A program made the position numbers and the translations under genes. The notes under the pieces are model-generated. The model was not told where the DNA came from and did not search any database. It worked only from the letters and a program-made list of their open reading frames with translations. From positions 1 through 14,290 of the IMG/VR virus record IMGVR_UViG_2534682108_000014: a DNA stretch of 14,290 nucleotides; one strand, given 5' to 3'. Numbering within the stretch: position 1 is the stretch's first letter; each line of letters opens with the position of its first letter. Shown piece by piece: positions 1 to 10,335 of this stretch. This DNA comes from a virus (Duplodnaviria > Heunggongvirae > Uroviricota > Caudoviricetes).

Positions 1-237
1 TCAGTGTGCCACTACACCACGTACAGCTCTGAACCAGGGGAATGTGATTAATTCCAGGCATTCGACGTTCTCTGTACCGCGATCAACCAAATCGCCAACC
101 GAGATAAGCAGGTCTTTTTTGGTGTCGAATCCAATCGTATCCAGTTTGTTCATCAGGTTCGTGTAGCAACCGTGCAGGTCGCCAACTACCCAAATATTTC
201 GGTATTTGCTGCCATCAATTCTTTCGTAATAGCGCAT
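1..237 (-). CDS. Serine/threonine protein phosphatase (lambda NinI / PPase-like), N-terminal 79 codons only; C-terminus lies beyond the window start
   Basis: Translation from ATG at 237 gives [37 protein letters not shown]...GDLVDRG, i.e. the metallophosphatase GDxHG and GDxVDRG motifs, and closely matches my memory of the lambda phosphatase N-terminus. RBS GGAG 8 nt upstream. The ORF-track start at 312 is an upstream in-frame extension overlapping ninH. Confidence 0.8.
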
Positions 238-421: not shown

Positions 422-1029
422 GCGACCTCACTTCTGCTATTTCGCAGGTCTTTGAGTTTCTGTTGGTACTCTGCCTTGATCGCCTTGCACTCTTCGACAG
501 TCCAGCGATGGCGGTTATGGTTTGATTCGATTTCGTCTACTGCTTCCTGCCCGATGCGGCTAATAAGTTCGACGCGATACGGAACGAGATTTCCGCTTTT
601 GTGCTGGTTGCACACCACGCATTGCTTGTGAATATTGCGTTCATCAAACCGAAGTTGAGGTGCCGCAGCAGTTGTCCGGTAATGTCCGGCATCCCACTGA
701 GCAGACGTGAGCGTTCCGCACGAGATACATGGTAAGTCGCGGTCTCTTTCTCTGATGAAGGCGTTTACGGCTTGTTGGGCTTGTTTAATCCAGTAACTGC
801 GGGGCTTTAAGGCGAGTTTTCGAATCTTAAGTTTATCTTTCTGTTTCTGCTCCTCTCGTCGTCGTTTCTTCTCTGCTGCCTTTTCCGATTTTTCGCGTTC
901 TTTGCTTCGTCGTTCGAGTGCTATCTTGGTTCCACACTCTGGAGAGCACCACCACTGATTGGCGAATGCAGGGTGAAACCATTCCCGACATTCATCGTTT
1001 TTACATCGTCTTCGCGCTGGTTTAGCCAT
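418..1029 (-). CDS. ninG: NinG / Rap-family recombination-associated protein (203 aa)
   Basis: 203-aa ORF with cysteine clusters (CKNDEC...CSPEC; CISCG...CVVCNQHK) and a basic KR-rich linker, typical of NinG. Position ninF-ninG-ninH matches the lambdoid nin order. Confidence 0.88.
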
Positions 1030-1198
1030 CGTCTTCTTCCTCGTACATTGAGCTATTCGGATCGCTCATAAGTTCTGCGCAACAGTGCTCACACACGTGA
1101 ACTTCCAGCACATGCAGCTTCTGACCGCAGTTAGCGCACGTTAAAGCCCGCTCGACGCTTTCTTTCTGGTATTAAATGGATTGGGATGGGCTAAGCAT
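1022..1198 (-). pseudogene. ninF: ninF-like 58-codon frame interrupted by an in-frame TAA at codon 9
   Basis: ATG at 1198 to TAA at 1022 is exactly 59 codons and translates [57 protein letters not shown]. The in-frame stop is at 1172-1174. This is NinF-like from memory of lambda NinF, which I recall with Q at that position. Confidence 0.55.
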
Positions 1199-6170: not shown

Positions 6171-6821
6171 ATGAAAACTCAATTGATGGGAGAGCGCATT
6201 CGCGCTCGGAGAAAAGAACTCAAGATCAGGCAGGCCGCACTTGGAAAGATGGTCGGCGTGTCTAATGTTGCCATATCTCAGTGGGAACGCTCTGAGACAG
6301 AGCCAAATGGAGAGAATCTTCTCGCCCTGGCTAATGCGTTGAAGTGTTCCCCTGACTATCTGATGAAAGGAGAGGAAAGTCTTTCAAACATTGCCTATCA
6401 CAGTAGGCATGATCCAAGAGGGTCATACCCTCTGATTAGCTGGGTGAGCGCAGGATGCTGGATGGAAGCTGTAGAACCATATCATAAGCGTGCAATAGAT
6501 AACTGGTACGATACAACCGTAGACTGTTCAGAAGATTCGTTTTGGTTGGACGTGAAGGGAGACTCAATGACGGCTCCGGCCGGTCTCAGTATCCCTGAAG
6601 GAATGATAATACTCGTCGATCCTGAAGTAGAGCCGCGTAACGGGAAACTGGTAGTTGCAAAGCTCGAAGGAGAAAACGAGGCAACTTTCAAGAAGTTAGT
6701 TATTGATGCAGGCAGGAAGTTTCTAAAACCACTTAACCCACAATATCCGATGATCGAGATCAACGGAAACTGCAAAATCATCGGCGTAGTTGTCGATGCA
6801 AAACTAGCAAACCTTCCATAA
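6171..6821 (+). CDS. c2: Prophage repressor, P22 C2-type (216 aa), LexA-like autocleavable
   Basis: MKTQLMGERIRARRKELKIRQAALGKMVGVSNVAISQWERSETEPNGENLLALANAL... matches P22 C2 near-identically from memory and has the same length. N-terminal HTH, Ala-Gly cleavage region, and C-terminal S24-type GDSM serine with a downstream lysine. Confidence 0.96.
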   Translation: MKTQLMGERIRARRKELKIRQAALGKMVGVSNVAISQWERSETEPNGENLLALANALKCSPDYLMKGEESLSNIAYHSRHDPRGSYPLISWVSAGCWMEAVEPYHKRAIDNWYDTTVDCSEDSFWLDVKGDSMTAPAGLSIPEGMIILVDPEVEPRNGKLVVAKLEGENEATFKKLVIDAGRKFLKPLNPQYPMIEINGNCKIIGVVVDAKLANLP

Positions 6822-8728: not shown

Positions 8729-8754
8729 GCCCTCCAGTGTGAGGGCCTTTTTAT
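8729..8754 (+). terminator. Rho-independent terminator within the PL operon, upstream of the c3-like gene
   Basis: GCCCTC-cagtgt-GAGGGC followed by CTTTTTTAT on the plus strand. Confidence 0.6.
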
Positions 8755-8818
8755 ATGCATACCAATAACGCTTCACTCGAGGCGTTTTCGTTATGCAATC
8801 AAATATAAGGAGTTACCC

Positions 8819-8953
8819 ATGATGCACTTTCAGTTCGCGGGTAGCGGCGTCATGTCCGCTTTCTACCCGCACGAATCTGAATTATCACGCCGAGTTAAAC
8901 AATTAATAAGAGCAGCAAAGAAACAACTGGAGGCGTTATGCGCAATGAAATAG
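8819..8953 (+). CDS. c3: CIII-like small protein (44 aa), putative FtsH-inhibitor that would stabilise CII
   Basis: From ATG 8819 (RBS AAGGAG, 5-nt spacer): MMHFQFAGSGVMSAFYPHESELSRRVKQLIRAAKKQLEALCAMK. This shares the lambda CIII pattern AG..V...P.ES.L.R...L.....K.L as I recall it. The track ORF starting at 8714 spans the terminator and is rejected. Confidence 0.5.
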   Translation: MMHFQFAGSGVMSAFYPHESELSRRVKQLIRAAKKQLEALCAMK

Positions 8954-9090
8954 CCATCAATCACCAGATGCTTCGTGCGGCACAAAACAAAGCAGTAATA
9001 GCCAGATTTATTGGTGATTCCAAAATGTGGCTTGAAGCAAATAAAGCGATGAAATCAGCTATCAACCTTCCGTGGTATCGCAGGAAATGA
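8938..9090 (+). CDS. Small hypothetical protein (50 aa), in the kil/arf position of P22-like phages
   Basis: ATG 8938 with GGAGG 4 nt upstream, overlapping the c3-like 3' end. Translates MRNEIAINHQMLRAAQNKAVIARFIGDSKMWLEANKAMKSAINLPWYRRK. Below the ORF-track cutoff; positional inference only. Confidence 0.4.
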   Translation: MRNEIAINHQMLRAAQNKAVIARFIGDSKMWLEANKAMKSAINLPWYRRK

Positions 9091-9245
9091 GTTTTACAGA
9101 TAACTGGTCAGACGAAGAATTCATTCGTCAGATGAAAGAATTAATCGGTAACGAAGGAGATATTCATGTCACTTGCAACCACAGTGAAGGAGAGCAAGTT
9201 ACAGAGACGCATGTACACGCAGAAAGCTCTCTGGTATCGCCATAA
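9087..9245 (+). CDS. Small acidic hypothetical protein (52 aa)
   Basis: ATG 9087 overlaps the preceding stop (ATGA), suggesting coupling; the RBS is poor. Translates MSFTDNWSDEEFIRQMKELIGNEGDIHVTCNHSEGEQVTETHVHAESSLVSP. Confidence 0.35.
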   Translation: MSFTDNWSDEEFIRQMKELIGNEGDIHVTCNHSEGEQVTETHVHAESSLVSP

Positions 9246-9346
9246 TGGCGACCGCGAAGGAATGCGGGTATGCCTTAATTTGTCCCGAGTCGAAGTATTA
9301 AATCAGCGTTATTTCCTTGGGCCTTGTCCATTCTGAGAACAAACAT

Positions 9347-9952
9347 ATGAGCAAAGAATTTTACGCAAGACTGGCTGCTATTCAGGAGAATCTGAACGCG
9401 CCAAAAAATCAGTACAACTCATTCGGCAAATATAAATACAGAAGCTGCGAAGATATTCTTGAAGGCGTTAAGCCGTTACTGAATGGTCTGTTTTTATCAA
9501 TCAGCGATGAAGTTGTGTTGATTGGTGATCGGTATTACGTGAAAGCCACGGCAACTATTACCGATGGCGAAAACAGTCATACGGCAACCGCTCTTGCACG
9601 AGAGGAAGAAAGCAAGAAAGGAATGGATTCTGCACAAGTTACGGGAGCCACAAGCTCTTATGCACGCAAGTATTGCCTCAATGGTTTGTTCGGCATTGAT
9701 GATGCGAAAGATGCAGATACCGACGAGCATAAACATCAGCAGAACGCAGCAGCAAAGCAATCAAAACCATCACCTACACCTGAACAGGTTCTAAAAGCAT
9801 TCACTGACGCAGCATTGCAGAAAAACACCGTGGAAGAGCTTAAACAGGCGTTCGCCAAAGCGTGGAAGATGCTCGAAGGCACACCGGAGCAGCACAAAGC
9901 GCAGGACGTTTACAACATCAGACGAGACGAATTAGAAGGAGCTGCTGCTTAA
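9347..9952 (+). CDS. erf: Erf, essential recombination function protein (single-strand annealing protein), 201 aa
   Basis: From ATG 9347: MSKEFYARLAAIQENLNAPKNQYNSFGKYKYRSCEDILEGVKPLLNGLFLSISDEVVLIGDRYYVKATATITDGENSH... matches P22 Erf closely from memory. The track start at 9317 is a TTG extension. Confidence 0.9.
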   Translation: MSKEFYARLAAIQENLNAPKNQYNSFGKYKYRSCEDILEGVKPLLNGLFLSISDEVVLIGDRYYVKATATITDGENSHTATALAREEESKKGMDSAQVTGATSSYARKYCLNGLFGIDDAKDADTDEHKHQQNAAAKQSKPSPTPEQVLKAFTDAALQKNTVEELKQAFAKAWKMLEGTPEQHKAQDVYNIRRDELEGAAA

Positions 9953-10335
9953 TGGCACATTCGATTACTGTAAGACTAAACAAGCCCGCAAGAGAGTTTC
10001 AGGCCGGGGAAAATATCGGATTCAACATCCGTGCTGGCGTTCAGTATTACGATCGCCAGACAAAAAAGAAAGAATGGACAAACTACAGCGCCGTTGTATT
10101 TGCCAAGCCTGGAGCGCAAGCTGATTACTACCGTAGTGTTCTTGTTGAAGGTGGCATTGTAGAAATTACCGGAGAAAACATCAGGGTTGATGTTTATCAG
10201 GGGCAAAATGGTCAATCAATCACTCTTGAATTACTGAATGCAAAGATTGGATTTGCAACTTCAGGAAACAGCCAACAGCAGCAAAGTAGCAATCATCAAA
10301 ATCATCCTGAATACGACGATTCAATTCCCTTCTAA
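9952..10335 (+). CDS. Single-stranded DNA-binding protein-like (short SSB with acidic C-terminal tail), 127 aa
   Basis: ATG 9952 overlaps the erf stop (TAATG). The C-terminus ...QQQQSSNHQNHPEYDDSIPF resembles the SSB signature tail DDDIPF after a Q-rich linker, and the N-terminal region has an SSB-like pattern (W.NYSAVVFAK ... VEGG.VEITG). The track start at 9862 lies inside erf. Confidence 0.6.
   Translation: MAHSITVRLNKPAREFQAGENIGFNIRAGVQYYDRQTKKKEWTNYSAVVFAKPGAQADYYRSVLVEGGIVEITGENIRVDVYQGQNGQSITLELLNAKIGFATSGNSQQQQSSNHQNHPEYDDSIPF

Follow-up and report, generated by a model that had tools for sequence, protein, structure and literature searches.

Whether a phage gene whose reading frame closes after eight codons has been lost, is translated by another route, has been given the wrong start, or only appears broken through an error in the draft assembly is the question raised by ninF in the stretch of DNA analyzed here (14,290 nucleotides, referred to at its full length as the window). 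Early-right (nin) and early-left sequence of a P22/lambda-like prophage makes up the window, and the host is probably E. coli. The nin genes follow the order of the P22-type operon, ninB-ninE-ninX-ninF-ninG-ninH-ninI, and upstream of them lie genes for a DnaB-like helicase and a replication initiator, as well as the immunity region (Table 1). The placement of ninF is that of a NinF gene in a nin operon with overlapping start and stop codons: its AUG lies 5 nt ahead of the ninX TAG stop, giving an overlap of 8 nt (ATGCTTAG), and at its other end the ATG of ninG (1029-1027) precedes the ninF stop by 8 nt (ATGGCTAA). The exact NinX protein was present on thousands of contigs and the exact NinG protein was WP_001108063.1 of E. 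coli. In the phage collection the closest records to the window were mosaic relatives such as IME10, HK106, HK633, and Sf6, and no record of that collection spanned more than about half of it.

Table 1. Genes of the nin operon, parts of the interrupted ninF frame, and the second site differing from the sister prophage, in window coordinates.
Feature	Position	Strand	Basis or cause
ninB	1726-2136	minus	
ninE	1553-1729	minus	
ninX (119 aa, intact)	1191-1550	minus	PF10765
ninF	1022-1198	minus	PF05810
ninF ATG (1198-1196), eight sense codons (MLSPSQSI), and premature TAA at codon 9 (1174-1172)	1172-1198	minus	translation
ninF remnant, predicted to be untranslated: 49 codons and native TAA (1024-1022)	1022-1171	minus	PF05810
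ninG (203 aa, Rap-like endonuclease, intact)	418-1029	minus	PF05766
ninH	215-421	minus	
ninI (Ser/Thr phosphatase gene, truncated to 78 aa)	1-237	minus	IS911 insertion
Synonymous Val41, GTG (window) vs GTT (sister), in a 68-aa ORF (2471-2677)	2555	minus	outgroup-polarised

The immunity region of the window also contained a 216-aa repressor (HTH_3 and Peptidase_S24; 6171-6821, plus strand) that is an extremely widespread exact allele. It was indexed in 11,847 assembly-collection blocks, where it lay beside many different replication/nin modules, and the immunity type is therefore a poor guide to what else the phage carries.

Read on the minus strand from position 1198, the ninF frame begins ATG CTT AGC CCA TCC CAA TCC ATT TAA and so encodes MLSPSQSI up to an ochre codon, and with TAA at codon 9 the window holds no uninterrupted start-to-stop frame for this gene. 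Our retranslation agreed with the preliminary description of the locus, made from the sequence alone, which had given the same ATG, octapeptide, stop, and 49 open codons running on to position 1022. That description had also recognized the sequence past the stop as NinF-like, an identity borne out by a PF05810 score of 47.8 bits for the 49-aa remnant (cutoff 27.5; profile positions 1-25 of 25) and by P22, HK544, and E. coli prophages, whose NinF genes are annotated from the same ATG. The remnant thus holds the whole NinF Pfam domain, together with the four-Cys motif (CANC...CEHCC), and its protein is identical to that of intact NinF from E. coli prophages (e.g., loci L005 and L007). Searching the PDB by sequence for NinF returned only insignificant matches to the zinc-ribbon protein uS14 (E of at least 0.19), and AlphaFold, given the 49-aa remnant as a single sequence, produced a model with a mean pLDDT of 62.7. 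A true start downstream of the TAA, which the preliminary description had allowed for, was rejected, as codons 10-29 contain no in-frame ATG, GTG, or TTG, leaving no start before codon 30, and both N-terminal types of NinF begin upstream. The window copy is a NinF pseudogene or null allele and not a functional member of the family.

The base responsible was identified by comparison with a pool of 153 loci, 120 of which were IMG/VR contigs recovered through a 29-nt stretch conserved in the core of ninF. This core was found at 147 places within the pool, four of them cut by locus ends. Broken frames numbered four, one in the window and three in retrievals of its own contig, and all of the complete copies from elsewhere (139/139) had an intact frame and a start codon. 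Among P22-type copies codon 9 was CAA (Gln) in 79 of 79, so that the alignment with relatives proposed in the preliminary description confirmed a sense codon at the interrupted position. Two common alleles were evident around this codon: P22, HK544, and many E. coli prophages encode a 58-aa NinF with TCC CTT CAA TAC (S-L-Q-Y), and a second allele common in E. coli reads TCC ATT CAA TAC (S-I-Q-Y; e.g., WP_000950944.1 and WP_000950943.1). We considered whether L8I was a second private mutation of the window and rejected this, because ATT at codon 8 occurred in 18 of the 79 copies and is a common allele. Compared with that I8 allele, the window ninF differs by a single C-to-T transition, the stop base itself, at window position 1174, where the coding strand has T and the plus strand A. 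A synonymous CTT in the window ninF was shared with sister L007. Across 63 distinct alleles pN/pS was approximately 0.22, which marks ninF as a genuine gene subject to purifying selection.

The interrupted allele was not met again in any collection searched. Its exact sequence was absent from 5,426 complete E. coli genomes, from 50,697 phage records, and from the GTDB species representatives, and no other copy was found in IMG/VR or in JGI metagenome contigs; the closest match to a 76-mer of the TAA allele among the complete E. coli genomes had one mismatch, which was the stop base. An exact-protein look-up for NinG gave five contigs. Of these, contig NJLL01000029.1 (GCA_002466935.1) was fetched over 11,029 bases, which matched the window at 100% identity throughout; the window occupies positions 61-14350 of this contig and the mutated base its position 1234, a G-to-A change on the plus strand, and no NinF gene is called on it. 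The TAA allele is known from one isolate lineage, represented by one NCBI contig and apparently collapsed Logan or duplicate records. Judged by gene calls, a NinF-less neighborhood was recorded for two samples and two similar places, including Logan re-assemblies.

A near-identical relative was a sister prophage in GCA_012417805.1 (NCBI), identical in the Logan assembly of SRR10054168, which encodes an intact 58-aa NinF and has C at the mutated base (loci L030 and L031). Between window positions 17 and 8745 (about 8,730 bases) the two prophages differ at two bases only, 1174 and 2555, and because a sister with CAA is this similar, the change in ninF is very recent. At the second site, the window's G was found in all 19 outgroup loci (19/19), so that the synonymous change is derived in the sister and the window is ancestral. 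It follows that the ninF TAA is the sole derived point substitution in the window lineage over approximately 8.7 kb. Stop-creating changes made up about 4.6% of the possible coding substitutions in this region and 3.0% of the transitions; the prior chance of a lone derived substitution being nonsense was about 3-5%, which is mildly unusual.

The comparison with the sister also revealed the limit of their near-identity, which stops abruptly at approximately 8747-8753 and resumes over 8936-10090 at about 98.6% identity. The interval 8745-8935 marks a mosaic breakpoint, made by recombination within the early-left operon, between two otherwise near-clonal prophages.

Several explanations other than an effectively neutral loss of the gene have to be weighed. 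The first is that the isolate truly carries CAA and that the consensus of a draft assembly has T there in error, as might be suspected of an allele confined to one assembly lineage and of an isolated single-base difference from a near-identical sister. The 3-5% coincidence described above is of no help here, since it is equally expected under random base-call error and does not discriminate between an error and a real mutation. Against an error, the contig is 53.6 kb long and ends inside an IS copy, which is typical of a short-read draft, and in such drafts substitution errors are rare. Consensus substitution errors in short-read drafts occur at an estimated rate of roughly 1e-6 to 1e-5 per base, and the number expected in 8.7 kb is about 0.01-0.1 (estimate). 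The site also lies outside any homopolymer and outside Dam (GATC) and Dcm (CCWGG) motifs, no known allele carries T, so that a collapse of two prophage copies could not have created it, and the gene calls record the NinF-less neighborhood for more than one sample or assembly. Taken together, these observations make a sequencing or assembly error unlikely.

It is very unlikely that inactivation of ninF, or its uncoupling from ninG, was advantageous and reached fixation through selection instead of drift. What speaks for such an advantage is that the only derived point substitution in approximately 8.7 kb should be a nonsense change, with the 3-5% chance of this under random mutation, and that ninF is also disrupted by the insertion of an HNH gene in some other prophages. 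A premature stop, however, recurred in none of the other copies (0/139) and purifying selection acts across the family, whereas a coincidence of 1 in 20 to 1 in 30 is unremarkable for a finding that was chosen because it was a stop.

Continued expression of ninF could occur by ochre suppression or readthrough, which would give a full-length protein, or by reinitiation, which would give an N-terminally shortened one. The in-frame restart candidates are GTG at 1111 and 1096 and ATG at 1069 and 1048, all of which lack an SD; the first GTG (1111-1109) and the first ATG (1069-1067) each lie 3 nt higher than the positions of 1108 and 1066 given in the preliminary description. GTG 1111, the nearest of these starts, is 63 nt (21 codons) past the stop, forms a duplex of -2.4 kcal/mol (against -5.9 for ninG), and would yield the longest restart product, 29 aa in length, which is missing the first CxxC and scores 20.8 bits against the PF05810 cutoff of 27.5. 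No nearby start thus restores a functional product, as termination-reinitiation would demand. As for suppression and readthrough, a tRNA scan found no tRNA gene within the window, Rfam gave no match there, and the RNA fold of positions 1215-1000 was not more stable than its shuffles (z = +0.87). The premature stop stands in the context UAA-U, reportedly the most efficient termination context in E. coli (Poole, Brown, and Tate 1995), and programmed readthrough is further contradicted by a stop that is conserved in no relative and is accompanied by neither a leaky context nor a stimulatory structure. Expression by any of these routes is very improbable. What could be cited for it are the in-frame GTG codons at 1111 and 1096 and the perfect preservation of the 49 downstream codons, the latter expected anyway for so recent a change. 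As far as can be judged from sequence, functional NinF is probably not produced.

We place next to no confidence in a bolder reading that draws on the same elements, namely that loss of NinF or ninF-ninG uncoupling was selected in the lysogen, or that NinF is made conditionally by way of an ochre-suppressing host. If uncoupling were the selected effect, ribosomes would halt 145 nt upstream of the ninG start and the dosage of Rap/NinG would be lowered; if loss itself were selected, NinF might, for example, be costly under leaky expression.

Based on these data, we consider it very probable that ninF in the window is null through a single recent C-to-T change (CAA->TAA) in the common intact allele, and that this change was effectively neutral and has been tolerated. 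Of the two possibilities offered in the preliminary description, a sequencing error and a dispensable gene that was inactivated recently, our results support the latter. As a private null allele the TAA is ordinary, of a kind already understood, and represents no new mechanism. In the course of expression, ribosomes would still enter at the ninF AUG, either by its modest SD (duplex -4.0 kcal/mol) or by coupling to the termination of ninX, and would make the octapeptide MLSPSQSI before terminating efficiently at UAA-U. Downstream, ninG has an SD of its own, GAGGA, 8 nt upstream of its ATG (duplex -5.9 kcal/mol), from which it would be initiated without coupling to the translation of ninF. Because ninG keeps this SD, it is still translatable despite losing any coupling to ninF; its predicted output may fall, and the gene itself is intact.

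The nin operon would be silent in a repressed lysogen, and a null allele of ninF would for that reason go unseen by selection. NinF is a protein to which no function has been assigned (PMC3224144). In lambda, ninF was non-essential by knockdown once polarity on Q was complemented, and phages from which the entire nin region has been deleted still form plaques (PMC10695390, citing Court and Sato 1969, Kroger and Hobom 1982, and Cheng et al. 1995). The purifying selection seen on ninF in nature suggests that its loss probably carries a cost for the active phage. With respect to annotation, the window ninF should be recorded as a pseudogene, and neither be missed nor be given a wrong start. GCA_012417805.1 (CAA) and GCA_002466935.1 (TAA) form a natural near-isogenic pair in which a NinF phenotype could be sought.

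The same prophage has suffered a second lesion, an insertion of IS911 (IS3 family) in ninI. Window positions 1-16 are the terminal 16 nt of IS911 and supply the last ninI codons and a TGA stop. As the contig ends 60 nt beyond the first base of the window, IS911 was seen over 76 nt, and its end (window end and contig tail) agreed at 73/73 nt with the IS911 copy that is annotated in phage Sf6. The sister has an intact phosphatase gene, and homology to it ends exactly at the IS end, with divergence at window position 17, and the truncated 78-aa ninI product was recorded only from one NCBI contig and Logan. The insertion fits an early erosion of accessory genes, and the lesions in ninF and ninI are both compatible with a still-viable prophage, given that the plaque-forming phage Sf6 carries IS911 in ninG and that nin-gene lesions alone therefore do not mean a dead phage. 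One nonsense mutation and one IS911 insertion on an otherwise unchanged 8.7-kb background provide an example of accessory-gene erosion at its earliest.

Among the relatives, ninF was interrupted in another way by a gene for an HNH_3 endonuclease (168 aa) lying inside it, just past the third Cys (L028:4468-5177, minus strand of the locus). The same insertion was present in three pooled alleles and in E. coli LR-71-1 (H75). In these copies the 5' part of ninF is fused to a new tail (...VCERCIYECLNMVEHNEKYKQHRRIKK) and the 3' end, now displaced, persists as an ORF of 27 aa, an arrangement that, by its sequence, looks like an insertion of the homing-endonuclease type. That ninF is split in this manner in other prophages is further evidence of its short-term dispensability.

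Both ends of ninF (window 1022-1029 and 1191-1198) are mosaic joints, as seen in loci L004, L006, and L009-L029. Downstream of ninF the relatives carry ninG, a KilAC/ANT antirepressor gene, or a small hypothetical gene followed by YbcO and RusA, and whether NinF ends in G or in E goes with the module that lies downstream (ATGGCTAA or ATGAGTGA/ATGAATGA). At the other end, the two N-terminal types follow the upstream gene, the P22 type occurring where this is ninX and the lambda type where it is ninE.

NinF of P22 (YP_063727.1) and the E. coli proteins WP_000950944.1 and WP_000950943.1 (PF05810) are products of the same gene, in the same position between ninX and ninG and with an ATG overlapping the ninX stop; WP_000950944.1 (...EEEDDG) is the conceptual product of the window if codon 9 is read as Gln, and the window differs from these genes in having TAA at that codon and encoding only an octapeptide. 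The ninF of lambda is homologous, has the same four-Cys core, and is dispensable for plaque formation, but the N-terminus differs in lambda-type NinF, where it reads (M/V)IDQNRSYEQ..., and the lambda-type gene directly follows ninE. The lambda nin5 lesion is a deletion (nin region between P and Q), whereas that of the window is a point nonsense mutation. A further known case is the ninG::IS911 of Shigella phage Sf6, a natural nin-gene lesion in a viable P22-like phage that involves the same IS911; in Sf6 it is ninG that was struck by the IS, whereas in the window a point mutation struck ninF and IS911 entered ninI.
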